Below, piece by piece: positions 4,458-39,917 of a stretch of DNA of 55,593 nucleotides (the stretch's first letter is position 1; each line of letters opens with the position of its first letter). Location: positions 1-55,593 of the IMG/VR virus record IMGVR_UViG_3300048835_001002; one strand, 5' to 3'. This stretch comes from a virus (lineage: Duplodnaviria > Caudoviricetes). Below the pieces are notes generated by a model that did no database searches, was not told the DNA's origin, and saw only the letters and a list, made by a program, of their open reading frames with translations. Made by a program: the position numbers and the translations under genes.

Positions 4458-5979
4458 GTCCGAAAGACCAACCATCTGGTCACGGGTGCGAAGCGTTTTC
4501 ACACCGTTTTCACAGGTTGATAACGCCTACCGTTCGACGACACGGGAGCCTGGATCCACAAGCGAGTGGAACCCGCCCTCGTCCAATGCCGACGAATCGC
4601 TCCTGCCCGTCCTCGCCACCTTGCGTGATCAATCCCGCGATCTTGACCGTAATGAGAGCATTGCCCGCGGCGCTCTTGAGAACTACATCACGAATGTTGT
4701 CGGCGATGGACTACGGCCGCAATCCCGGATTGATCATGAATTGATTGGGATCACCGAGGAAAAGGCTCGGGAGTTTGAACGTCGAGCGGAAAAGATCTTC
4801 TCGCTCCACATGAGCAGGAACACTGCTGACTGGCACGGTATGTCAAGCTTTGCCACCCTTCAGGCCCAGGCACTAAGATCCAGCATGCTCGACGGTGATT
4901 GCCTCGCCGTTCGGCGCTTTAGAAATCGTCCTGGCGCCATCCTTGGAACTGCCGTCCAGATCATCGAAGCATCCCGAATCCGTACACCGATGGATATCAA
5001 GTCTGACATCGACGTCCGCGAAGGGGTTGAACTCGACAGGACGGGCATGCCGATCGCCTACCACGTTGGCAAAACCGGCGCCGATCGTTTCCTCGGCAGT
5101 GAGACGGTGCGCGTTCCACGCTTTGACTCCCAAGGCACAGCAGCCGCCCTTCACCTCATCCTCCAGCGCCTGCCACGTCAAAGTCGTGGCGAGCCGTTCC
5201 TCGCTCCTGTGATCGACAAATTCAAACAGATTTCAAGGTACAGCGAAGCCGAGATCGATGCGGCCGTCATCAACGCATTCTTCGCGGCATCACTGACAAG
5301 CGAAGTGGGCGGCATCTTTGGCGATCGCTCGAAGGCCCACCTTGCAAACCCTCAGACGAAACCGCCCGAGCGCAAGTACCACAAGTTTGGCCCAGGCACG
5401 ATCCTTGAGCTTTTACCCGGCGAAAAGCTGGAAGGAACGACTCCGGGCCGACCGAACATGAACTTCGACGCTTTTGTGCAGGCCGTCATCAAGCAGATCG
5501 GAATCGGTTTATCCATTCCCTATGAAGTGCTTACGCAGCATTTTTCTTCGAGCTACTCCGCGGCCCGCGCGGCGATCCTTGAGGCCTGGAAGGTCTTCAA
5601 AGTGCGCCGGGCATGGCTTGTGAGCGAATTCTGCCAGCCCGTCTGGGAGTGGGTGATAGCTGATGCCATAGAAAGCGGGCTGCTTGATGCTCCTGGCTTT
5701 GATGACCCGCTGAAGCGTCACGCCTGGCTCTCCGCGCAATGGTGTGGCACCGAGATGGAAGCCATCGATCCCCTGAAGGAAGCCAAGGCCAGCGAAACCG
5801 AAATCGCCATTGGTGTGAAATCGCGCCGCTTCATTGTGGAAAGCCAGGGCCGCGACTTTGACAAACAGATCCAGGAGTATGAGGAGGAGAATAAAATCTT
5901 CTCTGATCCGGCAGCACAAAGCCAGAACATGGGCAACACGAATTCCGGGCAGGGCCGTCCGCAATCTGCGGACAGCTGA
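4441..5979 (+). CDS. Portal protein, lambda family
   Basis: LRDQSRDLDRN, VVGDGLRPQ, QSRGEPFLAPV, SSYSAARAAILE, IDPLKEAKA motifs. Confidence 0.95.
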   Translation: MQYLVKSERPTIWSRVRSVFTPFSQVDNAYRSTTREPGSTSEWNPPSSNADESLLPVLATLRDQSRDLDRNESIARGALENYITNVVGDGLRPQSRIDHELIGITEEKAREFERRAEKIFSLHMSRNTADWHGMSSFATLQAQALRSSMLDGDCLAVRRFRNRPGAILGTAVQIIEASRIRTPMDIKSDIDVREGVELDRTGMPIAYHVGKTGADRFLGSETVRVPRFDSQGTAAALHLILQRLPRQSRGEPFLAPVIDKFKQISRYSEAEIDAAVINAFFAASLTSEVGGIFGDRSKAHLANPQTKPPERKYHKFGPGTILELLPGEKLEGTTPGRPNMNFDAFVQAVIKQIGIGLSIPYEVLTQHFSSSYSAARAAILEAWKVFKVRRAWLVSEFCQPVWEWVIADAIESGLLDAPGFDDPLKRHAWLSAQWCGTEMEAIDPLKEAKASETEIAIGVKSRRFIVESQGRDFDKQIQEYEEENKIFSDPAAQSQNMGNTNSGQGRPQSADS

Positions 5980-6098
5980 AACCTTTACAGGGAAAGGCCG
6001 CTCGGGATATTCTTCGCCTTGCCTCTCACGAGAGTCTTCCCGGACTGCTCTTTGCCCACCCCCTCGAAATCACGCCCCCAACCACCCGGAGCCCTTGC

Positions 6099-7304
6099 CT
6101 GTCTTTTGCTCTCAGCTACATCACAAGCACCCCATGGGCCATCACCGAAGACTCGCTACGGTCCATGATTGCCATTGCGACTGAACACGGATCAATCGAA
6201 GCGCTTGAAAAAGTGCGTGGCACAAGGGCCAAAAACACCGAGCGCGCGACTGTTCGCAGCGGGGTGGGCATCATCCCCATTCGCGGGCCTCTCTTCAAGC
6301 ACGCAAACCTGATGACCGATCACTGCGGCGCCACCTCCTATGAGATGGTGATGCGCGATTTTCATCAAATGCTGGCTTCCTCGGATGTCCGCAGCATAGT
6401 TTTCGATATCGATTCGCCTGGCGGCGAAGCCAACGGAACATCGGAGCTTTCCGATGCGATCTTCGCAGCCCGCGGCCAAAAGCCTACGGCCGCCTATATC
6501 GGCGGAACCGGAGCAAGCGCCGCATACTGGATTGCGAGCGCCTGCGAGAGGGTCTTTGCTGCAGATTCCGCGATCATTGGCAGTATCGGTGTGCAGCTCG
6601 CTCTGCATAACGAAAAAAATGAAGGTGAAATCCGCTTCGTCTCCTCGCAGAGTCCGAATAAAAACCGCGACCCTGCGACTGAGGGAGGCGCAAAGGACAT
6701 TCAGACCATTATCGATGGCCTCGCCGATGTCTTTATTGGAAAAGTCGCCCGAAATCGCGGCGTCGACCGCGCGGCCGTCCTTGAGAAATTCGGTCAAGGT
6801 GCTGTCTTCGTCGCTGCGGATGCAGAGAGTCGCGGCCTTATCGATCAACTTTCAACACTCGAAAGCGTCATCTCAAACCTTGGAGATCATCAATTGGCAT
6901 CCGATCAGCCAATCACTGCTGAATTTATCAAAGAAAGCCACCCGGCCGTAGCCGAGCACTTCATGCAGCTTGGTGCCGAGCGCGCATTGGCCAAAGTCCT
7001 CGCCGACCAGAAGCGCTCGGAATCAATCAAAGGCATGGCCGAGGGCCTCGTTTCAAACGAATTCTGCCAGACCCTGATTTCGAGCGACATGACTGCAGCC
7101 GATGCAGCCCTGGCCATCATTCAGGAGGCAAAGAAAAACCCACATAAGCCAAAAACAAGCCCAAAAGAGTCCTTTGAAAGCCAGCTCGAAGGGCTCGACG
7201 TACCACCCAAAGACCAACCTTCATCCGCATCACTTGCCGAGCAGCAGGACTGCATTCTTGCTCTCGCCCAAAAAGTAGATGGCTTGAAGATTAAAGGATC
7301 GTAA
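6099..7304 (+). CDS. Head maturation protease (S49 peptidase, lambda gpC-like) with C-terminal scaffold region
   Basis: DIDSPGGE, ASAAYWIAS, GSIGV motifs; the frame extends upstream of ATG 6165 through the typical PWAI motif to a CTG at 6099 preceded by GGAG. Confidence 0.9.
   Translation: MSFALSYITSTPWAITEDSLRSMIAIATEHGSIEALEKVRGTRAKNTERATVRSGVGIIPIRGPLFKHANLMTDHCGATSYEMVMRDFHQMLASSDVRSIVFDIDSPGGEANGTSELSDAIFAARGQKPTAAYIGGTGASAAYWIASACERVFAADSAIIGSIGVQLALHNEKNEGEIRFVSSQSPNKNRDPATEGGAKDIQTIIDGLADVFIGKVARNRGVDRAAVLEKFGQGAVFVAADAESRGLIDQLSTLESVISNLGDHQLASDQPITAEFIKESHPAVAEHFMQLGAERALAKVLADQKRSESIKGMAEGLVSNEFCQTLISSDMTAADAALAIIQEAKKNPHKPKTSPKESFESQLEGLDVPPKDQPSSASLAEQQDCILALAQKVDGLKIKGS
6894..7304 (+). 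CDS. Nested in-frame scaffolding protein (Nu3-like)
   Basis: In-frame TTG 8 nt after GGAG (6882-6885), just past the protease domain; helical ITAEFIKESHP...ERALAKV. Confidence 0.5.
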   Translation: MASDQPITAEFIKESHPAVAEHFMQLGAERALAKVLADQKRSESIKGMAEGLVSNEFCQTLISSDMTAADAALAIIQEAKKNPHKPKTSPKESFESQLEGLDVPPKDQPSSASLAEQQDCILALAQKVDGLKIKGS

Positions 7305-7699
7305 TGGACTTTAACCCTTCCTATCGGGTCGTGGACTCCTACACGCCTCGCCTGATCCATCGCGGCAATTTCCCCACCTACCGCGGATCAGTCACCATTG
7401 AAAGAGGTCAGATTTTAAAGCTGGGCTCTGTGCTTGGCCGCAAAACCACGACCGGAAAATTCGTGCTCTGCAGTAAAACTGCAGACGATGGAACAACGGC
7501 GATCGCTGATGGCAGCGAAAAGCCGGTCTGCATTCTGCAGGTTGACATCGATGCCACGGAGTCCGATAAATTCGCTCCGGTATTTCGCACCGGCGCTTTT
7601 CTCGGACTTGATCTTGTGCTTGGCAAAGGCCACACACTTGCATCCATCGACGACGATCTCAGCCTGCGCTCGATCTATATCGAAAAAGGGGAGGACTGA
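7304..7699 (+). CDS. Head decoration protein (gpD-like)
   Basis: GQILKLGSVLGRKTTTGKF...DGSEKPVCIL motifs; directly before the major capsid gene. Confidence 0.9.
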   Translation: MDFNPSYRVVDSYTPRLIHRGNFPTYRGSVTIERGQILKLGSVLGRKTTTGKFVLCSKTADDGTTAIADGSEKPVCILQVDIDATESDKFAPVFRTGAFLGLDLVLGKGHTLASIDDDLSLRSIYIEKGED

Positions 7700-7704
7700 G
7701 ATAT

Positions 7705-8730
7705 ATGGCTCTTCCCATTTACGGCACCTACTACCTCAATCGCCTGATCACGCGCATCGTGCCAAAGCCCAAGTTCTTTCTTGATCGCTTCTTCCCGACT
7801 GAAGTGCAGTCGACCAAGGAGGATGTCTATTTCGACGAAGCCCCTGGCGTCAAAGCAGGTATCGCTCCCTTCGTGCATCCCCTTGTCGAGGCGCCCATGT
7901 TCCGTGAGCAGGGCTACCGGACCAAATCCCTGCGACCTGCTTACATCAAGGAAAAGACCGGACTCACCCCCGATCGCGGAAACGTCCGCATTGCCGGCGA
8001 AGCGTTCGGCGGTGAACTGACTCCGATGCAGCGCCTTGAACTCATGCTCGCGCGTGATGTTGCCCGTCTTCAGGAACGCTGGCGAAACCGCCTGGAACTC
8101 ATGGCGGCCGAAGTTGTTAAAACCGGGCGACTCACCATCAAAGGTGACGGGATCGATGCTGTACTGGACTTTGAACGCTCGGCAAGCCTCACAAAAAAAC
8201 TCGCTGGTGACAAGGCCTGGACGAACAAGGACCTTCCCATGCGCCAGCATTTTGAAGGGATCCAGCGGGAAGTCGCTTCGCTCAACCTTGGTCAGACGCG
8301 CCCCTATAACGTCATCATGGGACCTGAAGCGTATGACCTCTTCGCTGCGAACAACGAGGTCAAAAGTCTTCTGAATGAAATGATCCGCGGAGCCGACCTG
8401 GAGCTGCAGATCACTCCGGGTATGCAGTCCTTCGAGAGTCTTGTCTATAAAGGCAAGTTCGGCAACGTCCGGCTCTGGGTGTACGAAGCCATGTCCGATG
8501 ACGGCAAGCTCTACATCGAACCCAAGCAGGCCCTTTTTTTCTGCGACAGCATCCAGGGCGTTCAGTTCTTTGGAGCCATCCAGGATCTTGACGCCAACCT
8601 GATGGCACTTAAGACCTTCCTCAAAAGCTGGAAGATCGAGGACCCCAGCCAGCGCATCGTTCTTTTGCAATCGGCGCCCGTCCTTGCCACCTTTGACCCG
8701 AACACGGCGTGCCTTCTCAATGTTGCCTGA
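7705..8730 (+). CDS. Major capsid protein, lambda gpE family
   Basis: FFLDRFFP, IAPFVHP, PAYIKEK, RLELMAAEVV, KSWKIEDPS...LLQSAP motifs. Confidence 0.95.
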   Translation: MALPIYGTYYLNRLITRIVPKPKFFLDRFFPTEVQSTKEDVYFDEAPGVKAGIAPFVHPLVEAPMFREQGYRTKSLRPAYIKEKTGLTPDRGNVRIAGEAFGGELTPMQRLELMLARDVARLQERWRNRLELMAAEVVKTGRLTIKGDGIDAVLDFERSASLTKKLAGDKAWTNKDLPMRQHFEGIQREVASLNLGQTRPYNVIMGPEAYDLFAANNEVKSLLNEMIRGADLELQITPGMQSFESLVYKGKFGNVRLWVYEAMSDDGKLYIEPKQALFFCDSIQGVQFFGAIQDLDANLMALKTFLKSWKIEDPSQRIVLLQSAPVLATFDPNTACLLNVA

Positions 8731-9007
8731 AACGGACGAGCTTTTTGAAGCAGAAGGCCAGCCCTTCGTCGGCACGCTGACCTCGTTTGATCTGCCTTCT
8801 GAGGCCGGTACGCCCGGGCTTCTGACCCGGGTCCATCGGCTTCTCGTCATTGACGAGGTATCACACGGACTTTCGGAAAAAGCCATCATCAGGCGATCAG
8901 CAAACGGCGAATCGTTTGAGATCAAAAACCGGATACGCTCCGGTGTCGGGATTACCGAGCTTGATCTCGGGCAAATCGAATCCTCACCTTTTGAGAGAAA
9001 CTTTTGA
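8720..9007 (+). CDS. Putative head-tail adaptor / head closure protein
   Basis: Small ORF coupled to the capsid stop, at the usual head-closure position. Confidence 0.55.
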   Translation: MLPETDELFEAEGQPFVGTLTSFDLPSEAGTPGLLTRVHRLLVIDEVSHGLSEKAIIRRSANGESFEIKNRIRSGVGITELDLGQIESSPFERNF

Positions 9008-9495
9008 ACTCTGATCTTCCGCTGATTCGCATAAGGACCGGAATCGAAAAGTGCCTCGCCGGGGCACTGCCCGATTTCAAGCGGTTCAATGCCCGCGTGA
9101 CCAAGCTTTCGGAAGCGGATCTGCCTTGCCTGAACCTCTACTTTCACAGGGATCGCCTGGTCAGAAACCAGAATCTCCACGATGACAGGGAGGTTCGCTT
9201 TGAAATCGAAGCGTGTTTCAAGGCGCATTCTGATGCAGAGAGTGAGCTTTCGTTAGCCAGAAAGCGCATCGAGGATGCCATCGAAGGAAACCAGGAATTG
9301 CGAAACATCGTATCAGACTGGTCCTTTCACATGGTGGACTTCGCTCACGAAATGGTCGGAAGCGTGCGCGTTGCCGCCCTTGCCATCACCTGCTGCATCG
9401 AGTACATGAGGCCCCGCCTACCGCCGTCGGTCGAGTTCCCAGGCCCACTGCGCGAAGTCTGGATCAACAGGGAGAAGACTCCATGGACGAGTTGA
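9004..9495 (+). CDS. Putative tail terminator / tail completion protein
   Basis: FNARVTKLSEADLPCLNLY pattern typical of tail-terminator proteins; position. Confidence 0.6.
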   Translation: MNSDLPLIRIRTGIEKCLAGALPDFKRFNARVTKLSEADLPCLNLYFHRDRLVRNQNLHDDREVRFEIEACFKAHSDAESELSLARKRIEDAIEGNQELRNIVSDWSFHMVDFAHEMVGSVRVAALAITCCIEYMRPRLPPSVEFPGPLREVWINREKTPWTS

Positions 9496-10139
9496 CCGCA
9501 GAGCTTCTCGTTGTGGTCCAGGACCTTCAAAGGCGGGTTAATAACCTTCTTCGGCCGGGACGCATAATCGCGGTTGATCCAAAAGCCGAAACCGTTCGCG
9601 TTCGACTTTCCGATGGTGACGGCTCGGAAGGAAGTCTTCCGCTCGATACTCCCTGGATCACGGTGATGCAGGAGCGCGCCGGCGAAACGTCGAGCTGGGA
9701 GTTTCCTGAAATTGGTGAGCAGGTCATGGTGCTATCGCCTGGTGGCGAATTGAGTGGCGGCATGGTCGGACATGCGATTCACTATGCAGACCGCCCATCG
9801 CCATCCACCGATCCCAAAGTGAAGATTCATCGCTTCTCGGATGGCTTCGCGTTCAGCTATGACCAGACCACGCATACGCTTTTGATCTCCCGTCCTTCTG
9901 AGCTGAGCATTGTCATCGATGCCGACAAACTCCAGGTCACAGCCAAAACCATTGAGTTTCAGACTGAAAAAGCGGCCATCCGCAACGCGGCGGGAGACGA
10001 GTTTCTGGGCCTGACCTCGGCAGCTTTCAAATCAGTTCAATCGTCACAGACGGCAACGATGATGGGACCACAACCTCTTCTCCCAGCCGCAAACGAGCTG
10101 CAAGGGATGACCACAAAAATGGACTCATTTGGAGGATAG
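9483..10139 (+). CDS. Baseplate spike protein (P2 gpV-like)
   Basis: NLLRPGRIIAVD, TPWI, RAG, PEIGEQVMVLSPGG, RFSDG motifs. Confidence 0.9.
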   Translation: MDELTAELLVVVQDLQRRVNNLLRPGRIIAVDPKAETVRVRLSDGDGSEGSLPLDTPWITVMQERAGETSSWEFPEIGEQVMVLSPGGELSGGMVGHAIHYADRPSPSTDPKVKIHRFSDGFAFSYDQTTHTLLISRPSELSIVIDADKLQVTAKTIEFQTEKAAIRNAAGDEFLGLTSAAFKSVQSSQTATMMGPQPLLPAANELQGMTTKMDSFGG

Positions 10140-25915: not shown

Positions 25916-26464
25916 CAGGCCCCAGCCACGGTTTTCCAGAATCCGGTGTCCGGGTTCTGGATCTCTGCGTCCCCTTGCTGCCGGGTGAGCTCGCCTTTGC
26001 CTCCGGAGGCACGGATCTCACTGTCCTTCTGATATAGCGTCCATGGCGACGCATTTTTATGCATCCGATCCATAAGAAAACAGTATAATGCCGAAATAGT
26101 TGAGCTATTTTTGTAGAAAAAGAGCTGAAAATTGAAGAAAGTTTTTCAGGTGCAGTAAGCATTATGCAATCGTCTGCATAATCATATAGTGCTTCGACCG
26201 ATTGATCAGGGAGACTTCACTTTCCATCATATAAAGATAGGCAAAGTCTCCCTGGTTCACGGCCGAACCATCTTGCAACGATATCCTCCATGATTACTGT
26301 TTATTCATAATTGTACAATAATCGAACAATATTCATGTGTTACGCGACGAAAGGTTCTTGTAACTCTTCAGATTCATGGCGGATATTATACTCTTACCGA
26401 GAACAGCTGCCGTGGTATGTCTGTTGCTCCTAAGGGCTTAAATAAGCCCATCCAGGAGTCAAAC

Positions 26465-27049
26465 ATGAAATGCAGGGTCATCCGCACTGATGATGAATTG
26501 AAACAGTATGTCGATCGTTTCGCGGAATACTCCGGGATCGTTTATCCGTTTCAATACTTACGCCCAGCAAAAGTATTCGGAATGTTCGACTCCGAAAAGC
26601 TTGTAGGTGGCTTCATTCTTGCTGATGGCGACAATATCCGCTGGATGAAGCAGATTCCCCTCGAAAACAATGAATTTTTCAAATCTGTCGATCCGTCCAT
26701 GCTCGTCGAACTCAACGGGGTTTGGCTCGATGCCTCCCTCCGAAAATCCAACAAGACCATTGATTTCTGGTCATATGTGGCGAAGGAAATCGTTGCTTTT
26801 GGGAAGCCTATTCCCACGTTTGCATACATTACAGAAAGAAAAGGTCTAGCTGAACTCTATCAGCCCATAACTGTAGGGAAAATATTTGCAGGTCAAATGA
26901 CCACATCAGATAAACACCTGACAGTTTGCTATTCCAATCTGTTCAGATTCCGATATTTCAAAGTATTGTATGCTGGTCGTTACGTGACACGATACTTTAG
27001 AGACGGCGGGAAAAGTGAGCAGCACCTCCAAAAAGCAGCTCGAAGCTGA
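26465..27049 (+). CDS. Putative GNAT-fold acyltransferase (LuxI/FeeM-like fold possible)
   Basis: VFGMFDSEKLVGGFIL strand and VELNGVWLDASLRKS resembling GNAT motif A; CAGGAG RBS. Confidence 0.45.
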   Translation: MKCRVIRTDDELKQYVDRFAEYSGIVYPFQYLRPAKVFGMFDSEKLVGGFILADGDNIRWMKQIPLENNEFFKSVDPSMLVELNGVWLDASLRKSNKTIDFWSYVAKEIVAFGKPIPTFAYITERKGLAELYQPITVGKIFAGQMTTSDKHLTVCYSNLFRFRYFKVLYAGRYVTRYFRDGGKSEQHLQKAARS

Positions 27050-28379
27050 AAAGCTGTACCAACGTTTTCTGAATGCTCAGGCAACCAAAGTAATAGGAAG
27101 CCGATGGGGACTGGTCCTCATCGCAGTCCTGCTGGCTCTTGTAGCGTATGACATTTCCAATTTTAAAAATGATATGGATCGAATTCTGGTCGGGGCGCGC
27201 TTCGCACCCTGTATTATTCTCATACTAATCTCGCTTTTCAAGCAGGAAAGTGTGAGTCCATCCTGGATGGAGAATGCGCCGCACTGGTTCGATTTGATCT
27301 GTGTTTCATATGTCGGCGCCTCCGTGCTCTTGACGATCATATGCCACAAAACTGAATTCCCGCTGGATTCTGCACCGATTCAAATCTCTCTCTTCGCAGC
27401 TTGCATGCTTGGTTTTCATAGCCTCCGCTATATTATGATACGCAACATATTATTTGTCTTTCTGGTCAGTGTCTCAATCGCATTGTTCGATTCTACATCT
27501 CTTCTCATCGCGCAAGCTGCTCAACTTATAGTAGGTGGCGGAGTTGGATCTGTGATCTTTTTGTTAATAACAAATAGTTTGTTTCAAAACCAGTACATCA
27601 TCAGTACTCGGTTAAGCCAGCAGACTTTGGACTTCCAATCCCACCTCGAATCGACAAAATATGACCATCAGAAGACCATGATTTTCGACGGGTTCAAGGA
27701 AGAGGAAACCATGCCTTGCCACACCGGGGAAGCTCTTGTCTTTAAGCTCGATGTCATTGATAGTTCAAAGATACGGGACACCAATTATCCGAGGCATTTT
27801 GAAGCCTTCTGCGAAGAAGCCGAGGCTGAGTTACTGTCACACATGACAGTAGCAAGTTTGGACCCCGTTTTTCTTAGGGGTAGAGGGTATTTTATAAAGA
27901 GTGTCGGTGATGCGGCCATTTTTTCGATAGGAAATCCTGTTGCTGTAGCGAAGCCCTATACCATGCAGGACGCCACTGATTTCCTACTGAAAACAATCGA
28001 CGCAGCGTTCAAAAAGCATATGTCCAGAGTCTCATCAGAAAATCCTATCCTATATTGCATCGGGGTTGCATATGACAACTTGCAAGGTGGTTTCTCAGGT
28101 AAGAGAAAATTCTATGACTTGAACGGCAGAGGGCAGATTCTCGCAGAACGCTATGAGAACCTGCGAAAGAGATTCCAATCCCTATCAATACCTCTTCCGA
28201 ATGGAAATTTTTTAATACTCCAGGATAAAGCAAAGGCCTTCTTTACCAATGAATTTCTTTATACTTTTGAAAAAGTTCATGTAGACGCGATAAGAGATGA
28301 CGAAGCTGCAACCTTCTTTTGGATCGTCCAGCTTCGCAAAGATAAAGTCCGAGTGACATTGCTTGATCAAGTTTCATAG
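27015..28379 (+). CDS. Membrane-anchored (about 6 TM) class III adenylate/guanylate cyclase-like protein
   Basis: Hydrophobic N-terminal half; VFKLDVIDSS (metal Asp1), IKSVGDA (Lys, Asp2), YDLNGRGQILAERYE (Arg kept, Asn replaced). Confidence 0.78.
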   Translation: MSSTSKKQLEAEKLYQRFLNAQATKVIGSRWGLVLIAVLLALVAYDISNFKNDMDRILVGARFAPCIILILISLFKQESVSPSWMENAPHWFDLICVSYVGASVLLTIICHKTEFPLDSAPIQISLFAACMLGFHSLRYIMIRNILFVFLVSVSIALFDSTSLLIAQAAQLIVGGGVGSVIFLLITNSLFQNQYIISTRLSQQTLDFQSHLESTKYDHQKTMIFDGFKEEETMPCHTGEALVFKLDVIDSSKIRDTNYPRHFEAFCEEAEAELLSHMTVASLDPVFLRGRGYFIKSVGDAAIFSIGNPVAVAKPYTMQDATDFLLKTIDAAFKKHMSRVSSENPILYCIGVAYDNLQGGFSGKRKFYDLNGRGQILAERYENLRKRFQSLSIPLPNGNFLILQDKAKAFFTNEFLYTFEKVHVDAIRDDEAATFFWIVQLRKDKVRVTLLDQVS

Positions 28380-28399
28380 CCGACTTTCGGAGATATCGT

Positions 28400-28966
28400 T
28401 TGGAAAAGATTATGATTGCCTTCAAGATTTTGTTGATTGTCCAGCTGGTAGCCTTCAGAGTGATTTACCGCAGCCAGATTTTTTGGAAGGATAAAAAGAC
28501 AAAATCTGAGAAAGATGTCAGCTGGCTTAAAAATCTTCTTCCTCCCATGCAATTGGGAATTTTCGTTGTTGTCGCATGGGCCATGCAGAGCGAAGGATCT
28601 GCTGTGCTCCTTGCAATTGGCAACTCTATATCGTTCTGCGGGCTGTCACTAATATTTTGGGCCAAAAAAACACTGGGAGAAAACTTCTCTGAGTGTACTG
28701 ATATGTACATTCCCAATTCGATTGTCACTGTAGGGCCTTATAAAGCCATCCGCCATCCGATATATACTGGAAATATTGTGTTTCTGTCAGGCCTGGCGAT
28801 CGCCTGTTCGTCGATCGTGCTTATAGCCATTACCATTTTCTTTGTAATTTTCTACTCAAAATCTGCATCAATTGAAGAGCAGGAACTGCAATTGAAGTAT
28901 CCCGATTATCAAAAGCACATAGAAGTCACTGGACGATTCCTGCCAAAAATCCTCAAAGTCAAATGA
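28400..28966 (+). CDS. Isoprenylcysteine carboxyl methyltransferase (ICMT/Ste14/PEMT) family membrane methyltransferase
   Basis: LGENFS, VTVGPYKAIRHPIYTG, EEQEL, YQKHIEVTGRFLP motifs. Confidence 0.9.
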   Translation: MEKIMIAFKILLIVQLVAFRVIYRSQIFWKDKKTKSEKDVSWLKNLLPPMQLGIFVVVAWAMQSEGSAVLLAIGNSISFCGLSLIFWAKKTLGENFSECTDMYIPNSIVTVGPYKAIRHPIYTGNIVFLSGLAIACSSIVLIAITIFFVIFYSKSASIEEQELQLKYPDYQKHIEVTGRFLPKILKVK

Positions 28967-29249
28967 CTGTATGAGTCCTGTCAAAGCTCATGTGGGGGCC
29001 ACCAAGAGGGGGCCTAGTCGCTCACTCCGTAGTCCAAGCTGGACACATTGATGAGGAAGAGGAACCTTCGTCCGGTCTCTGTTCAATGACCTTTTCTTGG
29101 TGGCGAGACCATTCTTGAGAAGCAGCAGCAGGGTTTTCCGCGATGGACTTTTCGAGCGCCAGCGACTCACTATATGCGGCTTTCGTGGCTTCCAGATGGT
29201 ATTAGAAAACCTGGCATCCACAAACGGAGGGAGATTGTAGAGTTTTTAA

Positions 29250-29642
29250 TTATGAGTTTCTGCGCAGAAAAACAGGACGTATTTCAACGGTTTTGATTGC
29301 ACCCGCGATCGTCTCGACAATCGTATCCAAATCGAAAGGCTTGTTTACGAGTGCGTGAACGAATGGCTTTACTTGAGATAAATCAAAATTTTCGTGGTAG
29401 CCGCTGACCAGAATAATGGGTAGATGTGGTCGCAGCTGATGACATGCTTTCGCCAGTTCAACACCATTCATCGTCGGCATACAGAGATCACTAAGAAGAA
29501 GGCTTATTTCTGGGTTTCCTTTCAAACGCTGGATGGCTCTCAGGCCGTCCTCAGCCTTCACAACTGCAAAACCGGACTGCTCCAGATAGTCCGCGATAAA
29601 ATCCCGCACGGTCTGGTCGTCGTCCACAACGAGAATGGCCAT
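29250..29642 (-). CDS. Single-domain response regulator (receiver)
   Basis: ILVVDDD, LSDLCMPTMNG, ILVSGY, KPFD; GGGAG RBS. Confidence 0.92.
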   Translation of the reverse strand: MAILVVDDDQTVRDFIADYLEQSGFAVVKAEDGLRAIQRLKGNPEISLLLSDLCMPTMNGVELAKACHQLRPHLPIILVSGYHENFDLSQVKPFVHALVNKPFDLDTIVETIAGAIKTVEIRPVFLRRNS

Positions 29643-29675
29643 GAAAGCACTCCCTGACATTGAATTTGGCTTTAA

Positions 29676-29897
29676 TCATAGCACAATTCCCTGCAGGCCG
29701 GTAGCGTTGTAGTGATCTTCCACCATTGCCAGTGTAATGCCATAATCTGCTGTAGCCTCGTGCCAAGATTGATTTTTTACGGGACGGACCAGGTTATTAG
29801 GAAGCACAAGTCCTGCCTCATTGATGATCGCATTCTCCAGAATTTCATCATGCTCGGGATCAAGGCCGGTTGTTTCTGTGTCCAAAAATATTTGCAT
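29676..29897 (-). pseudogene. Truncated DEDDh 3'-5' exonuclease
   Basis: IFLDTETTGLDP..DEILE (ExoI motif) but only 73 aa; ExoII/III absent. Confidence 0.75.
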
Positions 29898-29913
29898 AGG
29901 TTACTCCTGAACC

Positions 29914-30789
29914 TCAACCGATCATGCTCCGGCAGGCCGAGCAGAGCGGACGGCCGTGTTTGAATCGGACCACAGAAAGCAGCTTGATCCTGTCGCAGAC
30001 GCCATCCAGAACATCTCCATTCCCCGCACTGATCACCATCAAGCCTTTGGACCAGTCAATGATATTGGCTTTGGCATTGCTCAGCGCCGCGGACACATCC
30101 TCCTCGGTGCGCTTCACATTCTCGCTCTTGGGCGGCTGCACTGTTTCTGTGCCGGGAGCATGGGCAAGGCGCTGGACCTCTGCTTCAAGTTCCTTCACTC
30201 GGCGAAGAGCGGCCGAGAATTTATCCATGGAGAGCTCACCCTGAAGATTGCGCACCTCTGATTCCAGCTGCTCAACCTTTCGCTGCTGCGCCTGGCGGCT
30301 GCTGCGCTCTTCGTTGACCAGCTGCTCCAGCCGCTTCGCCCGGGCTTCTGCTGGCTCTGAGATTTGGAATGGGGATTTTCCTTCAATGACGAGATCGACC
30401 GCTGCAGCAAGTGTCATGCGGGATTTGAGAACCCGGCGCCGTCCGTCGCTCGTCACCCGCCCCTGGTCTTTGAAGGTGGTGCGAGCCAGACGCATAAGCA
30501 TGCGCAAAGGAAAACGGTCTTCATGGATCAGGATTTTCGCGCGGATCTGCGTCGGCCATGCCGCAGCCTTGATCATACGCGAGACGGTTGCCTGGCTGAC
30601 ACCGAGAGCCTGGCCCATCATGGGCTGTGCATGTCCGGCTTTGTCGAGCAGCAGGAGTCGGTCGCCCAGATCGAACCACTCCTCGGCCGTGGCCGGCGGC
30701 TTCAGTCCTATCAGCTGGGACGGCACCACGCGGAGTTTGGGCGGTCTTCCACGCCCTTTGCTTGTCTCCAGGGCGACAAAACTGGCCAT
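29914..30789 (-). CDS. KorB/ParB-like HTH protein with coiled coil
   Basis: QPMMGQALGVSQATVSRMIKAAAWPTQI is a ParB/KorB-type HTH; no ParB N-terminal domain. Confidence 0.6.
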   Translation of the reverse strand: MASFVALETSKGRGRPPKLRVVPSQLIGLKPPATAEEWFDLGDRLLLLDKAGHAQPMMGQALGVSQATVSRMIKAAAWPTQIRAKILIHEDRFPLRMLMRLARTTFKDQGRVTSDGRRRVLKSRMTLAAAVDLVIEGKSPFQISEPAEARAKRLEQLVNEERSSRQAQQRKVEQLESEVRNLQGELSMDKFSAALRRVKELEAEVQRLAHAPGTETVQPPKSENVKRTEEDVSAALSNAKANIIDWSKGLMVISAGNGDVLDGVCDRIKLLSVVRFKHGRPLCSACRSMIG

Positions 30790-31160: not shown

Positions 31161-31430
31161 ATGACGGCCGTGAAGAAAGTGGACCCGCAGGGGCGCCTGA
31201 CGATTCCCGAACTGTCGGGGGCCCAGGTGATTATTGAAGCGATCAGCGAGCATGAGTTCCGCGTGCGCCGGGTTGAAGTAATTCCGGCTGAGGAAGCGTG
31301 GCTTTTCAAAAATCCAACAGCGACTGCTGCGGTGCAGGCCGGTCTTGCGGATGCCATCGCCGGGAAATTCGCGGATGACCCCCGCACAGGCAAGGACTAC
31401 AGCTGGCTGGATGATATAGAAGATGAGTGA
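31161..31430 (+). CDS. AbrB/MazE-type antitoxin
   Basis: KVDPQGRLTIP; IPAEEAWLFKN...GLADAIAGK; acidic tail; GAGGAGG RBS. Confidence 0.75.
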   Translation: MTAVKKVDPQGRLTIPELSGAQVIIEAISEHEFRVRRVEVIPAEEAWLFKNPTATAAVQAGLADAIAGKFADDPRTGKDYSWLDDIEDE

Positions 31431-31773
31431 ATTCACCCTCAAGTGGACCCCGGCGGCGCGGCAGACTTTTGTTGATCTTGAACAGCGGGCACTTCAGGCG
31501 TATGAAAGCAGACAGCAGACCGGCAAAAGTCAGTCAGCGGTTGAAGGTCTATTCAAGCAGATCAAGAAAACAGTGGATCTTTTGGGAGCAAATCCCAGAC
31601 ATCCTGGCCTTAAAACGCATGAATATTCGTCCATCCCCAATCCTCTGCGGAAAGGGGAAAAGGTGTTTGAAGCCTATGCCCAGAACAATACTCCAGGAGC
31701 CTACCGGGTCTTTTGGTGCTACGGTCCTGACAAGTCGGAGATCACCATCATTGCCATCACTCCCCATCCATGA
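31423..31773 (+). CDS. RelE/ParE-like toxin
   Basis: NPRHPGLKTH, VFEAY, AYRVFWCYG, ITIIAITPHP; overlaps the antitoxin stop. Confidence 0.75.
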   Translation: MSEFTLKWTPAARQTFVDLEQRALQAYESRQQTGKSQSAVEGLFKQIKKTVDLLGANPRHPGLKTHEYSSIPNPLRKGEKVFEAYAQNNTPGAYRVFWCYGPDKSEITIIAITPHP

Positions 31774-37466: not shown

Positions 37467-39917
37467 ATGCGGATTCCGGAAGAAACCAAAAAAACCATCA
37501 AGGCGCTCTTGCCACCAGAGAAGCTGGCCGCCATGCTCGGCATTAGCGTAAAAAATTCCATGCTGCTTTGCCCCTTTCACGAGGACACAACGCCGAGCAT
37601 GAGCTGCAAGCGCGCCAAGTTCCGTTGTTTTGCCTGTGGAAAAAGTGCTGACGTGATTGAGTTTTATGAGAAGTATCGTGGGCTCGATTTTGTTGACGCC
37701 GTCCGCGATCTTGCAGCCCATGTCGGAGTCGACATCTCTGATCCGCAACCGAAGAAGTCAGACCGGAAAAAGACTGACTCGAAGGACGGTGCATATTCGT
37801 TCGGTTCGATCGAGGAGGCCCGCCGCTATTATTCAGCTCGCCCGGGCTACCGGTTGATTGCAGATCATGGGTGGTCAAATGATGACGGCACTCCCAACAA
37901 GCACGTCTTTCGGCTTTATCCTCTTGACCCCTTCGAGCGCAAGCAGTTTCCAACCGTTTTTCCGTCTGACGGCCGCTGGGTTAATAAAAAACCTGGGAGC
38001 CACCAACGCCCGCAGCCTTATCTCTGGGGCTCATGTCAGGACGGGGCCGAGGTGTTCATCTTTGAAGGCGAATGTGATGTCGAAGCTGCACAACACGAAG
38101 GATTTCCCGGCACTACAACGGGCAACTGCCACAGCTGGCATCCAGACTATGCACGGTATTTTCGTGGCAAGTACGTTGTGATTGTTCCTGACTGCGACGA
38201 ACATGGGGCGCGATACGCCGATGCCATTGCCGAGTCGCTCCGCTCTGTCTGCCTCGGCCTCAAGATAATCGACCTTGGTGGCTCGGACGGGTTCGACTTC
38301 AGAGACTGGCTAAAAGCCGGTGGGACGGCCGAAGTATTTCGGAAGCTCGTGGATGCGGCTCCAGACATTCTCCTCGCCTGGAACGCCCCCAAGGCGTCCT
38401 GGGATGGATTTGAACGCATACCCTATTTCGATTCCGATGAGATGCTCCACTGGTCGATCCGCTACTGGATCGAATACCTGGCGGCCGACCTTCAGGCACC
38501 TATTGATGCCATCGCCGCCGGGGTCATCACAGCTCTCTCGACTGTTATCGGCGCGAAGGTCTTTCTTTACCCCAAGGTCCATAGCACGACATGGCGCGCC
38601 TATGCCTGCATCTGGTATTTGCTGGTGGCGCCGGCCGGTGACAAGAAGACGGCAATTCAAAAAGCGTCGCTCGCCATGGCCTTTTTGCTCGATAAGGAAC
38701 TCTCGCGCCTGAATGTGGAAGCGGCTGCTCTGCGAGATGCCGAGGAGTCAACCCTGAAAATCGAGCGACGCCAACTGGAGGCGCAGTTGGCTGTGGCCAT
38801 TGAAAAGGGTAACGATGTGCAGCTTCTTCAGGAGCAGCTGACCCGGAAAGCGGCCCGGCTTCTGGCTCTTTCCAAGGAGGGCGACCGAAGCCTCATCGTC
38901 CAGGACGTGACCCCGGAAAAGCTGAAGGAGCTTCTGGTTCAAAATCCAAACGGTCTTCTCCAGTATAACGATGAGTTCGGTGGCTTCTGGCGCAATCTTG
39001 CCAAGGGCGCTCACACGGATTCGCGCTCGGTTTACCTTGAAGCCTGGAACGGCGGCGAAATCAAGGTCCAGCGCAAGAAGGGATCGTATTCCGGCTGGTC
39101 GATTCTCTCCTTTGTCAGCAGCACCCAGCCTGATTGGCTCAAAACTGTCATCGATGAAATCGTCGCTGGCACTGACCAAAACGATGGGCTCATTGCCCGC
39201 TTTGGTTTGATCGTCGCACACGACCGCCCCATCGGAACTTTCAAGTGGCACGATGCCCCCTTCAACCCAAAGGGCAAGGACCTTTTCGAGGAGATCTTTC
39301 GCCGGCTTTGGGAACTTAAGGTTCCTGAGGACCAAAGGGCCTTGCGCTTTGATCCAGAGGCCCAGGAGTTTGTCGTCCAGTGGATGGAGGAGCATCACAA
39401 TTTCTGGCGGGACAGCAAGGACCGCCCGGCCATGCGCAGCCACATGGATAAGCAGACAAGCCTTTTTTGCTCTCTCTCGATTATCTTTCACATGCTCTTC
39501 TGTTTTGAGGCAGAGGAAATCACTGACGAAAATAGCAGCTTCAGTCGGGAAATCTCCATCCATTCCGCTCGCATGGCAGCCAGCTGGTGCCGTTACATAG
39601 GCTATCACGTGCGCAAGGTCTACGAGCCAAAGCAAGGCTACTGGGACCCCTCGGTTCGCTCATTTGCGGCTCAGGTACTGGCTGGCAGGATAGTCGACGG
39701 CATGTCGCGTTCGGAAATTCTTGCGAAGAGGTTTCAGCATCTGAAGACAGCGAAAGACCTTGATAGCGCCATCCAGGGATTGCGCGAACTGAATCTCGTG
39801 CAGGAGACGGAGACTTTTCAGCCCGGTGGCGTGCGCACGCAAAAGGTTATTCGCATCAACCCGGCATCGCTGGAACGCTCCGATCCAATTGCTGTCAAGG
39901 ATGATAAAAATACATGA
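37467..39917 (+). CDS. DNA primase (CHC2 zinc finger plus Toprim) fused to a DUF3987/YfjI-like helicase domain
   Basis: CPFHEDTTPS...FRCFACG, FIFEGECD, VPDCDEHG, VAPAGDKKT, DVTPEKL, NDEFGG, DGLIARF. Confidence 0.85.
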   Translation: MRIPEETKKTIKALLPPEKLAAMLGISVKNSMLLCPFHEDTTPSMSCKRAKFRCFACGKSADVIEFYEKYRGLDFVDAVRDLAAHVGVDISDPQPKKSDRKKTDSKDGAYSFGSIEEARRYYSARPGYRLIADHGWSNDDGTPNKHVFRLYPLDPFERKQFPTVFPSDGRWVNKKPGSHQRPQPYLWGSCQDGAEVFIFEGECDVEAAQHEGFPGTTTGNCHSWHPDYARYFRGKYVVIVPDCDEHGARYADAIAESLRSVCLGLKIIDLGGSDGFDFRDWLKAGGTAEVFRKLVDAAPDILLAWNAPKASWDGFERIPYFDSDEMLHWSIRYWIEYLAADLQAPIDAIAAGVITALSTVIGAKVFLYPKVHSTTWRAYACIWYLLVAPAGDKKTAIQKASLAMAFLLDKELSRLNVEAAALRDAEESTLKIERRQLEAQLAVAIEKGNDVQLLQEQLTRKAARLLALSKEGDRSLIVQDVTPEKLKELLVQNPNGLLQYNDEFGGFWRNLAKGAHTDSRSVYLEAWNGGEIKVQRKKGSYSGWSILSFVSSTQPDWLKTVIDEIVAGTDQNDGLIARFGLIVAHDRPIGTFKWHDAPFNPKGKDLFEEIFRRLWELKVPEDQRALRFDPEAQEFVVQWMEEHHNFWRDSKDRPAMRSHMDKQTSLFCSLSIIFHMLFCFEAEEITDENSSFSREISIHSARMAASWCRYIGYHVRKVYEPKQGYWDPSVRSFAAQVLAGRIVDGMSRSEILAKRFQHLKTAKDLDSAIQGLRELNLVQETETFQPGGVRTQKVIRINPASLERSDPIAVKDDKNT

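Follow-up and report, generated by a model that had tools for sequence, protein, structure and literature searches.

A probable FeeM-like acyltransferase gene beside genes for a predicted six-helix cyclase homolog and a membrane methyltransferase on a phage-plasmid of Oligoflexus-type bacteria

What do three genes that follow repA in a phage genome do there, and do they act together? The window (the whole stretch of DNA analysed, 55,593 nucleotides) carries terminase, portal, protease, tape measure and tail genes, and also ParA/ParB and RepA. A sequence-only reading had described three AT-richer genes, overlapping or adjacent after repA, and proposed that they form a self-contained circuit in which a small-molecule signal is made, sensed and turned into a cyclic nucleotide. 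The genes, called here g1, g2 and g3, and their immediate surroundings are as follows.

26288..26464, plus strand: conserved operon leader; its left edge is the indel junction with an ATP-grasp gene in related phage contigs.
26465..27049, plus strand: g1, whose soluble product of 194 aa belongs to an unannotated family (without a match in Pfam, NCBIfam, PHROG and PADLOC).
27015..28379, plus strand: g2, with a GTG start, encoding a predicted 454-aa 6TM class III cyclase-homology protein (from relatives, profile and fold).
28400..28966, plus strand: g3, encoding a predicted 188-aa polytopic membrane methyltransferase of the ICMT/PEMT superfamily (from Pfam).
29250..29660, minus strand: stand-alone response-regulator receiver gene (Pfam Response_reg, 77.5 bits); a neighbour, its membership of the cassette not shown.

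The described layout and composition hold. The trio consists of three selected plus-strand genes (g1 26465-27049, g2 27015-28379, g3 28400-28966) lying 3' of repA, with 549 nt from the repA stop to g1, an overlap of 35 nt between g1 and g2 and a gap of 20 nt between g2 and g3. Its GC content is 0.437, against 0.542 for repA and 0.513 for the whole window, and only 1.1% of 2502-nt windows are as low. The g1 open reading frame (26417/26465-27049) encodes 210 or 194 aa depending on the start; the ATG at 26465 is the likely one because a relative's frame begins at the equivalent ATG, the preceding 16 residues are poorly conserved, and there is an AGGAG 8 nt before it. A search of the plus strand gave no sigma-70-like site. 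In blastn, window positions 26288-28974 correspond to 7274-9964 of the related phage contig L002 (identity 83.6%), and on the right the conserved block ends at 28974. Between window positions 26253 and 26288 L002 has 1570 extra bases (its 5704-7274); no ATP-grasp remnant is left in the window. Ratios of dN/dS against the L002 orthologs are 0.056 for g1, 0.091 for g2 and 0.133 for g3 (repA, 0.086); all three genes are thus under purifying selection. Beyond the right edge, an RNase T-type exonuclease gene has had its 3' part replaced by the receiver gene at 29250..29660 and persists as a remnant at 29715-29918; L002 has a 400-aa RNase T gene at this position, of which tblastn recovers only residues 2-69 in the window.

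Like ICMT/PEMT membrane methyltransferases, g3 passes both Pfam models (PEMT PF04191, 45 bits, cut-off 25; ICMT PF04140, 38 bits, cut-off 24) and is polytopic, with five hydrophobic segments in a hydropathy scan, but it falls far below the cut-off for protein-S-isoprenylcysteine O-methyltransferase equivalogs (NCBIfam NF040696, 55 bits, cut-off 160). The ICMT-family identity first given to this gene is thereby upheld, and g3 can be annotated by homology as an ICMT/PEMT-type membrane methyltransferase. It is 41% identical to a homolog in Oligoflexus tunisiensis that adjoins a g1 relative.

The second gene, taken by its own sequence, matches no Pfam family at E<=0.1 (PF00211 included) and no NCBIfam, PHROG or PADLOC entry. 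It has 296 relatives, and among the 69 that were aligned 53 match PF00211 and 30 match 7TMR-DISM_7TM. The family profile matches the PDB cyclases 7yzi (best, E 3.8e-4), 5oyh, 8sl3, 6aoa and 5mbg. The AF2 model of g2 has a pLDDT of 92.1, and its best Foldseek match is 7yzk, the Rv1625c/Cya cyclase (E 1.6e-8); among the matches listed (ranks 1-50) nearly all are class III cyclases, with target TM-scores of 0.64-0.69 for catalytic-domain chains. The parts of the protein are these.

27084..27584, plus strand: g2 membrane module, six hydrophobic segments, residues 24-190 (hydropathy scan and AF2 helices).
27666..27716, plus strand: linker motif H218-Q219 ... T232-M233-P234, which follows the last membrane helix and precedes the catalytic domain.
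27717..28343, plus strand: cyclase-homology domain (alignment to the PDB membrane cyclase 7yzi, family columns and codon check).
27750-27752, 27897-27899 and 27909-27911, plus strand: codons of D246, K295 and D299 (codon check).
28116-28118, 28137-28139 and 28149-28151, plus strand: codons of D368, I375 and R379 (codon check).

The loops between the membrane segments are short and an extracellular domain is absent. Segments, relatives, profile and fold agree with the 6TM class III cyclase identity proposed earlier, and the 7yzi alignment, column counts and codons agree with the residues then named (both metal aspartates, the Lys and the Arg, with Ile for Asn). Across the 69 relatives the metal-binding aspartates D246 and D299 are invariant, as is R379 (69/69 each); the substrate pair is K295 (66/69) and D368 (62/69, with Glu in the other seven). 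The position of the canonical Asn, I375 in g2, is never Asn (0/69: I 30, V 29, T 6, M 2, A 1, E 1), and the transition-state Asn-Arg pair of class III cyclases is thus represented by its Arg only. The Lys/Asp pair specifies ATP in class III cyclases, and the active cyclase Ma1120 naturally has Ala where Asn is canonical, as described in an excerpt of PMC4215837. Since g2 keeps the ATP-specifying pair and Ma1120 works with Ala for Asn, cyclase activity of g2 is plausible. The linker motif is conserved as well (H218 69/69, Q219 63/69, T232 66/69, M233 68/69, P234 65/69). On alignment and model, then, g2 is a membrane protein that combines six helices with a domain of the class III cyclase type, and comes from a branch that lacks the canonical Asn.

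The first gene belongs to a family without a Pfam model, which it serves to define. Its product has no hydrophobic segments (hydropathy scan), and the family has six invariant residues, P28, G49, E82 (codon 26708-26710), W87, W102 and Y132. It had been called GNAT-like, and every GNAT-type family model misses it: g1 has no Pfam match at E<=0.1 (PF00583 included) and no NCBIfam, PHROG, PADLOC or PDB sequence match; PF21926 (FeeM), PF13444 (Acetyltransf_5) and PF00765 (LuxI-type) have no match in the window at E<=10, and the best case among ten g1-family members is a single one that reaches E 0.11 with PF13444. What speaks for the GNAT-like call is predicted structure and a weak profile-profile match. 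ESM Atlas features match g1, with a score of 0.98, to a cluster that bears the automatic name GNAT family N-acetyltransferase; its ten best named matches all fall in one clan; the Atlas's own model (pLDDT 0.76) has TM-scores of 0.59-0.72 to GNAT and FeeM clusters, those to clusters with FeeM domains being 0.66-0.72. An hhalign comparison of the g1 family with FeeM domains is weak and in register (score 27.2, P 0.0025, probability 12%; equalled in 1 of 60 shuffles), and places E82 on the invariant FeeM Glu. The Arg that is invariant after this Glu in FeeM is not kept in the g1 family, the Glu-x-x-Arg criterion being taken from a FeeM alignment built in this analysis. The AF2 model of g1 is poor (pLDDT 32.5), so the fold call rests on the predicted models of one service and on the hhalign probability of 12%. 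We regard g1 as probably a FeeM-like GNAT-fold acyltransferase.

Are the three genes functionally connected? Genome context was inspected in Oligoflexia at 16 chromosomal loci of g1 relatives (17-28% identical), each with wide flanks. In 11 of them the g1 relative adjoins a cyclase-family gene, which is directly downstream on the same strand in eight and divergent in three, and in three of the eight same-strand loci (L094, L097 and L156) the frames overlap as they do in the window. The other neighbours are ICMT-type genes (three loci), ATP-grasp genes (two) and none of these (one). All three ICMT-type loci also have a convergent gene for a membrane HisKA/HATPase kinase; the membrane modules of these three kinases score 5.8, 1.6 and -0.5 bits against that of g2, with unrelated membrane proteins scoring up to 2.5, and similarity between the modules was not established. 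Among 20 more distant g1-family loci there is one fusion to a fatty-acid desaturase domain, and in two a fatty-acid desaturase gene begins 3 bases downstream. In chromosomes, then, g1-family genes habitually lie beside those for polytopic membrane signalling proteins, and also beside genes for ATP-grasp ligases and fatty-acid desaturases. None of 81 main-branch cyclase loci has a g1 or ICMT neighbour. As to conservation of the trio itself, what recurs is its parts, the g1-cyclase pair in 11/16 loci and g1 with an ICMT-type gene plus kinase in 3/16. Cyclase and ICMT partners of g1 relatives are mutually exclusive in the chromosomes examined, all three genes occur together in none of the chromosomal loci examined, and the full trio is found in one phage lineage only (the window, L002 and L003, with identical match statistics).

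This restriction to one lineage is what would be expected of unrelated cargo that merely travels together. We consider that highly improbable, since g1 relatives of such low identity are found beside genes of the g2 and g3 types in many genomes, and since the three genes lie on one strand, overlapping or closely spaced, with similar composition and a similar level of constraint. Over 13 pairs, the identities of g1 and g2 relatives co-vary (Mantel r 0.896, a value that 0 of 5000 permutations reached). Recurrent adjacency and this correlation lend considerable support to the functional link that had been proposed between the genes.

The 13 g1-paired cyclase-family proteins also set a limit on what the pairs can have in common. 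Only six keep the full catalytic set, and five have lost the first metal Asp (D246) and the Arg (R379), while R427 stays invariant; H218, Q219 and T232 are present in all 13, and are kept even in the degenerate paralogs. Because partner cyclases are so often degenerate, the pairs cannot all have the function of sensing a product and making a cyclic nucleotide. The degenerate paralogs, in which the linker is nevertheless invariant, suggest that these proteins have a second role outside catalysis. They also fit another explanation, to which we give a real if minor chance: g1 may be a protein partner or modifier that docks on or acylates g2 (or the kinase) and so tunes signalling, with g3 acting separately on a membrane substrate. 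Pairing that persists beside degenerate cyclase domains, with linker and R427 unchanged, and the tight joint divergence of the pairs are as this explanation would have them; the overlapping frames, 35 nt in the window and present also in L094, L097 and L156, suggest stoichiometric partners rather than an enzyme and its receptor; and g1 fits no enzyme family model and is without the FeeM Arg. Set against this are the desaturase fusion and adjacency and the ATP-grasp and methyltransferase neighbours, which are typical of small-molecule or lipid pathways, and the alignment of the invariant g1-family Glu on the FeeM Glu.

Where does the cassette come from? RepA is 32% identical to that of phiHAP-1 and 30% identical to that of VP882, and has relatives in Oligoflexus genomes at 50% and 45% identity; the gene content and these similarities mark the replicon as an N15/VP882-like phage-plasmid, with RepA and ParAB, from Oligoflexus-type bacteria. 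These bacteria have an expanded cyclase family (208 stretches, mostly Oligoflexus and Pseudobacteriovorax), and replicon, cyclase family and g1 family all belong to Oligoflexia, an assignment that is new here. Outside the RepA elements examined, a chromosome can have up to three or four of the g1/cyclase pairs, which adjoin ordinary genes such as AcrB, MotB-like and SDR genes. The cassette is absent from each of three related elements and is bounded by indel junctions: the trio is an accessory operon acquired by the phage-plasmid from the gene pool of its host. In the relatives L002 and L003 a fourth gene encodes an ATP-grasp ligase, and the gene of the phage relative shares 41% identity with its counterpart immediately before the best chromosomal g1 relative; the window is without it, so a pathway encoded there could be incomplete. 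The cNMP-binding domain PF00027 has no match in the window or in the L002 and L003 records, and two Oligoflexus genomes have 7 and 9 such domains over the cut-off. With no reader of cyclic nucleotides found in the phage or these two relatives, and an additional ATP-grasp gene in the relatives, the circuit is not the self-contained one first envisaged.

The relationship of RepA to those of VP882 and phiHAP-1, and the place of the cassette in the variable region after repA, raise the question of whether it is a lysis-lysogeny input of the VP882 kind, in which g2 would sense a signal and a cyclic nucleotide would decide induction. In linear plasmid-like phages, as an excerpt of PMC10432266 describes, a variable locus beside repA carries lysis-controlling sensory modules. 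A VP882-type locus was defined as one in which repA and telN (PF16684) converge within 10 kb and enclose the module. No telN was found in the window at E<=1 (the record is estimated to be 91% complete), and for this reason the analogy with the VP882 locus, which the sequence-only reading had drawn, fails. Upstream of repA lies parAB, not a cI-like gene; no gene for a transcription factor paired with a small ORF was recognised next to the trio; and both the absence of a cNMP reader in these phage records and the multiple chromosomal copies of the pairs tell against such a role. Nothing was found that ties the cassette to lysis-lysogeny control, which we judge unlikely. A role in defence against or exclusion of other phages through a cyclic nucleotide, as in Pycsar or CBASS, is more doubtful still. 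The cassette is accessory cargo of a temperate element, and one viral contig (L004) has three cyclase-family paralogs near AbiTii, DUF3800 and NERD-like genes, but none of g1, g2 and g3 has a PADLOC match, no effector with a nucleotide-sensing domain was found (PF00027 being unmatched in the three phage records), the substrate residues of g2 are of the ATP type, and genomes hold several paralogous pairs beside ordinary genes.

The explanation that we prefer, and to which as a whole we give an even chance, is that the accessory operon taken from the host pool encodes a lipid-product synthase, a modifier and a membrane sensor. In this scheme g1, as a FeeM-like acyltransferase, would make a lipophilic N-acyl compound at the membrane; g3 would methylate it, for example to a methyl ester; and the membrane module of g2 would respond to the product and set the synthesis of cAMP, to be read by cNMP-binding proteins of the host. 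The coupling of g1 to acyl-lipid chemistry is proposed because of the desaturase fusion and adjacency and the ATP-grasp link, and the product might be either a diffusible signal or a membrane constituent. A bolder form, which we put forward tentatively, is that Oligoflexia have cognate pairs of synthase and receptor, the FeeM-like enzyme producing a lipophilic N-acyl signal that is received by the 6TM cyclase or polytopic kinase encoded next to it, and that one phage-plasmid lineage captured a private pair together with a signal-capping methyltransferase. If so, a virus would be both the source and the sensor of a small-molecule signal, which it would turn into cAMP in its host, a phage would carry synthase and receptor together, and the six-helix anchors of class III cyclases would have their first natural ligand system.

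The function of these six-helix membrane domains in class III adenylyl cyclases 'remains unknown' in the words of an excerpt of PMC9433096, and is termed a 'blind spot' in one of PMC12414865. The idea that they are receptors has rested so far on chimeras, as excerpted from PMC4821796, in which the 6TM module of CqsS can regulate a class III cyclase. The genetic association described here provides natural candidates for ligand-making enzymes beside 6TM cyclases, in many diverged copies and with a cultivable carrier, Oligoflexus tunisiensis, among them, so that what the anchors sense becomes a question open to experiment. By its gene content, moreover, a phage-plasmid of a little-studied phylum carries signalling cargo of host type.

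How does the trio compare with known systems? Rv1625c/Cya of Mycobacterium tuberculosis (7yzk, 7yzi) has, like g2, six membrane helices followed by one cyclase-homology domain, and the metal aspartates of g2, both of them, align with it in register, as do its Lys, Asp and Arg. Identity, however, is only about 13%, g2 misses PF00211, and its branch has Ile or Val in place of Asn and an invariant His-Gln ... Thr-Met-Pro linker. Unlike Rv1625c, for which we know of no reported pairing with a GNAT-like gene, g2 is genetically paired with one. FeeM-type N-acyl amino acid synthases (PF21926, in a clan with Acetyltransf_5 and the LuxI-type family) resemble g1 in predicted fold; g1 differs in matching no family model and in having no conserved Arg after the Glu, and true FeeM domains in the same Oligoflexia genomes are in frames of 393-527 aa at places away from g1-family genes. 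[quoted passage not shown] NAMEs are analogues of acyl-homoserine lactones. According to an excerpt of PMC11580390, candidate genes for their synthase have not been found. The VqmA-Phi/Qtip module of VP882 and the TF-smORF modules of linear plasmid-like phages share with the trio a related RepA and a position in the variable region after repA, but VqmA-Phi/Qtip is a receptor transcription factor with an antirepressor, whereas the cargo here is enzymes and a membrane cyclase homolog. A parallel in logic is offered by CqsA/CqsS and similar Vibrio pairs for lipophilic autoinducers, with adjacent genes for a synthase and for a receptor of about six helices that has no large outer domain. CqsA depends on PLP, whereas the putative synthase of the trio is GNAT-like, and the natural output here is a cyclase domain or, in three loci, a kinase.

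The three cassette genes 3' of repA, from which they are separated by 549 nt, form a compact array on the plus strand:

26465-27049 (+), gene 1, GNAT-like protein, 194 aa
27015-28379 (+), gene 2, cyclase-type membrane protein, 454 aa
28400-28966 (+), gene 3, ICMT/PEMT-type protein, 188 aa

Genes 1 and 2 overlap by 35 nt and 20 nt separate genes 2 and 3. The trio has a GC content of 0.437 against 0.513 for the window, with no more than 1.1% of equal-sized windows being as low, which bears out the description of AT-richer, overlapping or adjacent genes after repA in the sequence-only reading. L002 and L003, viral contigs related to the window and identical to each other in match statistics, carry genes 1, 2 and 3 at 90%, 85% and 88% amino acid identity, with dN/dS values of 0.056, 0.091 and 0.133, respectively, and of 0.086 for repA. 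The conserved DNA block (26288-28974) has an indel junction at each end. At the left junction the relatives hold 1570 additional bases with an ATP-grasp gene (L002, 5753-7057), of which there is no remnant in the window; at the right junction they have a 400-aa RNase T-type gene, which in the window is cut down to its first 69 or so codons (29715-29918). The 3' two-thirds of this exonuclease gene have given way in the window to a response-regulator receiver gene that stands alone (29250-29660, minus strand, 136 aa). A sigma-70 scan gave no promoter on the plus strand.

Is the trio a fixed part of this replicon? In all three related RepA elements of Oligoflexia, genes for gene 1, cyclase, ICMT and ATP-grasp proteins are absent from the vicinity of repA, and in Oligoflexus tunisiensis homologs of the window genes from 40.4 kb onward begin no more than about 1 kb after repA (2.4 kb if the longer matches are taken). 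The trio is therefore accessory cargo in a variable region. The cassette DNA had no match in a direct search of phage and plasmid collections, nor had gene 1 in a tblastn search of plasmids; a metagenome scan and a search of genome contigs with the close cyclase alignment also gave no match. A word-index protein search returned near-identical relatives only (three for gene 2, and for gene 1 itself alone).

The window record is classed as a provirus with an estimated completeness of 91%, and codes for a large terminase, portal, head protease, tape measure, tail and collagen-like fibre proteins, ParA and ParB. Its RepA (1074 aa, a primase-helicase) matches phrog_4913 and NCBIfam CyRepA1 and is 32% identical to the RepA of phiHAP-1 and 30% to that of VP882; N15 and PY54 are more remote. 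That the trio acts as a lysis switch of the VP882 kind is, in our judgment, improbable. The protelomerase domain PF16684 (telN) was not detected anywhere in the record at E<=1, so we call the element a RepA/ParAB phage-plasmid and not a proven telomere phage. It is of note that parB, not a cI-like repressor, lies upstream of repA. Other features of the window include a second primase/helicase-type gene (37467-39917, plus strand, 816 aa, matching PHROG DNA helicase and DNA primase families) and an 852-aa gene (52792-55350, plus strand) with a C-terminal bacterial EndoU nuclease match that is weak (19.6 bits, under the cut-off of 25.3) and adjoining large ORFs that match no family. Two overlapping small ORFs (31161-31773, plus strand, 89 and 116 aa) have no Pfam match at E<=0.01 and so resemble a toxin-antitoxin pair by layout only. 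Sequencing runs gave small DNA shares (0.05-0.08) in five cases, and no RNA run is among those listed.

The phage host is very probably an Oligoflexus-type bacterium, because the cyclase family is concentrated there and the closest RepA relatives are found there. Scanning with a tightly chosen subset of this family gave 208 stretches. Nearly all of the 79 loci kept belong to Oligoflexus, Pseudobacteriovorax and other Bdellovibrionota, and a single genome often has many copies. Full-length RepA relatives occur in two Oligoflexus genomes (50% and 45% identity), known phages being far more remote; these came from an HMMER genome search, whereas RepA peptide patterns gave no match in the genome contigs. 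A related element (L168) lies at about 2.03 Mb within a 7.57-Mb chromosome contig of O. tunisiensis, where a RepA of 44-45% identity is followed by homologs (36-74% identity) of the window genes at 40.4-47.1 kb. The RepA element family may therefore also exist in integrated form, in agreement with the provirus label.

For gene 2 on its own there was no match among Pfam, NCBIfam, PHROG and PADLOC models or PDB sequences. That the trio is a defence system we regard as still less probable than a lysis switch. Gene 2 has 296 relatives by exhaustive HMMER search. Among the 69 aligned family sequences, PF00211 matches 53 and the 7TMR-DISM 7TM module 30, and the family profile matches the membrane cyclase 7yzi (E 3.8e-4) in an alignment that spans both metal-Asp and the Asn-Arg motifs. 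With the AlphaFold model (pLDDT 92.1), the best Foldseek match was Rv1625c/Cya (7yzk, E 1.6e-8); mammalian membrane cyclases and guanylyl cyclases ranked next. Six hydrophobic segments lie within residues 24-190. Relatives, profile, predicted fold and topology together show gene 2 to encode a predicted class III cyclase.

Catalytic positions of gene 2 and column counts in the aligned family
D246, metal Asp: 69/69
D299, metal Asp: 69/69
K295, substrate Lys: 66/69
D368, substrate Asp: 62/69, Glu in 7
R379, transition-state Arg: 69/69
I375, canonical Asn position: Asn 0/69; Ile 30, Val 29, Thr 6, Met 2, Ala 1, Glu 1

The earlier observation that gene 2 keeps both metal Asp residues, the Lys and the Arg but has Ile at the conserved Asn was right, and by the column counts the whole branch lacks the Asn. 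Its loss need not abolish activity, since the active class III cyclase Ma1120 has Ala at this position and became less active when the Asn was restored (PMC4215837). The same source describes K/D as the ATP-specifying pair. Outside the catalytic positions, a linker motif of H218, Q219, T232, M233 and P234 (27666-27716) and the single residue R427 (28293-28295) are invariant throughout the branch, catalytically degenerate paralogs included. On another viral contig (L004, 5653-12803) three cyclase-family paralogs, of 447, 439 and 630 aa, adjoin AbiTii, DUF3800 and a weak match to NERD; the 630-aa paralog has a 7TMR-DISM module, and a gene 1-like gene is absent.

Gene 3 exceeds the cut-offs of the Pfam models PEMT (45 bits against 25) and ICMT (38 bits against 24) and has five hydrophobic segments; its score with the NCBIfam isoprenylcysteine equivalog (55 bits) is far under the cut-off of 160. 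Its designation as an ICMT-family methyltransferase is thus upheld at superfamily level, gene 3 being by both Pfam models a member of the ICMT/PEMT superfamily.

By sequence, gene 1 has no match among family models or solved structures, and FeeM, Acetyltransf_5 and LuxI-type profiles found nothing in the window even at E<=10. An AF2 model built from two sequences was of too low confidence to use (pLDDT 32.5). In the ESM Atlas, a 210-aa form scored 0.98 by features to a cluster auto-named GNAT family N-acetyltransferase, the Atlas model gave TM values of 0.59-0.72 to clusters with FeeM, Acetyltransf_1 and Acetyltransf_5, and for the 194-aa form one clan was common to the ten best named matches. 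The same genomes also contain bona fide FeeM domains. When six of these were compared by hhalign with a 10-sequence alignment of the gene 1 family, the score was 27.2 (P 0.0025, probability 12%) and E82, invariant in the gene 1 family, fell in register on the invariant FeeM Glu. Column shuffles averaged 13.0 +/- 3.1 and reached the real score in 1 of 60 cases, reversed alignments scored 10-11, and unrelated alignments about 17. The Arg that follows this Glu in FeeM is not kept in the gene 1 family. Taken together, the alignments and models make a FeeM-like GNAT fold likely. The GNAT-like call is favoured by the Atlas clusters and the weak hhalign match, and it applies to the fold, not to membership of the FeeM family. 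Among the structural neighbours in the Atlas, FeeM-like domains occur in fusion with cNMP-binding (124 members) or PilZ domains, an independent hint that FeeM-like enzymes elsewhere may be wired to cyclic-nucleotide signalling. Atlas clusters also point beyond the phylum, to Pseudomonadota and Bacteroidota.

Are these genes also neighbours in chromosomes? From the cyclase side, gene 1-family, ICMT-type and ATP-grasp neighbours were found at 0 of 81 main-branch loci, and tblastn agrees. Gene 1 relatives are present in four of five Oligoflexia genomes tested, and the gene 1 profile finds 46 places in 30 of the 131 genomes of the phylum. Thirty-seven of these places were covered: 16 with several-kb flanks, 20 distant ones with 1.5-kb flanks, and one at a contig end (L131), with no match among its neighbours.

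Neighbours of gene 1 relatives at the 16 wide-flank loci
Cyclase family: 11/16 (8 directly downstream on the same strand, 3 of these with overlapping frames; 3 divergent)
ICMT/PEMT-type: 3/16 (one 41% identical to gene 3)
ATP-grasp: 2/16 (one of these with a cyclase too)
No cyclase, ICMT or ATP-grasp neighbour: 1/16

The partnerless locus (L098, 4694-5926, minus strand) has a 410-aa protein without a Pfam match directly downstream and an AcrB-type pump upstream. The best chromosomal gene 1 relative has an ATP-grasp gene immediately upstream, and this shares 41% identity with the ATP-grasp gene of the phage relative. At the 20 distant loci no cyclase, ICMT or ATP-grasp partner occurs within the 1.5-kb flanks; one gene 1 relative forms a fusion with a fatty-acid desaturase domain, and two have a desaturase gene 3 bases downstream. 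One gene 1-ICMT-kinase locus (L099) lies in the chromosome of the cultivable O. tunisiensis. Each of the three ICMT loci continues with a convergent gene for a polytopic membrane histidine kinase, which the broad gene 2 profile matches in the membrane region only (E 1.8e-5, 1e-5 and 8e-3). A membrane module shared by the kinases and gene 2 was dropped as unproven: a membrane-only profile gave 5.8, 1.6 and -0.5 bits, against up to 2.5 for unrelated membrane proteins, and out of 200 block-shuffle trials 1, 2 and 56, respectively, came up to these values.

Gene 1-cyclase and gene 1-ICMT pairs recur in chromosomes, and the full set occurs at none of the chromosomal loci examined. Identities within 13 gene 1-cyclase pairs co-vary (Mantel r 0.896, with 0 of 5000 permutations as high), which argues that the pairs are old and have been inherited as units. 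That the trio is unrelated cargo is the least probable reading we considered.

D246, K295, D299, D368 and R379 are all kept in 6 of the 13 gene 1-paired cyclase-family proteins, including gene 2 of the window; in five the first metal Asp and the Arg are gone, and the linker residues H218, Q219 and T232 together with R427 are invariant in all 13. To judge from these residues, whatever ties gene 1 to the membrane proteins does not always need catalysis. In a quick tree gene 2 clusters with the degenerate proteins (SH-aLRT 99); this tree has unlabelled rows of unknown gene context, two of them identical to paired rows, and so is no test of clade labels. The degenerate paralogs, like the overlapping frames of genes 1 and 2, favour the main alternative, that the gene 1 product acts on the membrane protein as its partner or modifier, which we consider possible if rather unlikely. 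A complex prediction for gene 1 with two copies of gene 2 residues 186-454 scored 0.00, which is evidence neither way. Our best reading, in which we place about even confidence, is that gene 1 would make a lipophilic acyl product, gene 3 would methylate it, and the membrane module of gene 2 would respond to the product and so set cAMP synthesis. The gene identities, at the levels given above, the coupling and the cargo status are established; this chemistry and sensing, and a benefit to the phage, we infer. No cNMP-binding domain was found in the window, L002 or L003, and two Oligoflexus genomes have seven and nine, so any cyclic nucleotide made would, on domain content, be read by the host.

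A narrow literature search, with subscription journals outside its coverage, found nothing on gene 1-cyclase or gene 1-ICMT pairing or on an Oligoflexia phage-plasmid. In linear plasmid-like phages the variable locus next to repA holds sensory modules, and 274 repA-telN loci have been tabulated (PMC10432266); telN defines the repA locus of those phages, whereas none was detected in the window. For CqsS and cyclases, see PMC4821796. [quoted passage not shown] Gene 1 is, at most, distantly related to FeeM. Gene 2 is like Rv1625c in build and, by prediction, in working, but differs in lacking the defining catalytic Asn and in missing the Pfam model. The trio as a whole, though made of other parts, recalls adjacent synthase-receptor pairs, of which CqsA/CqsS is one.
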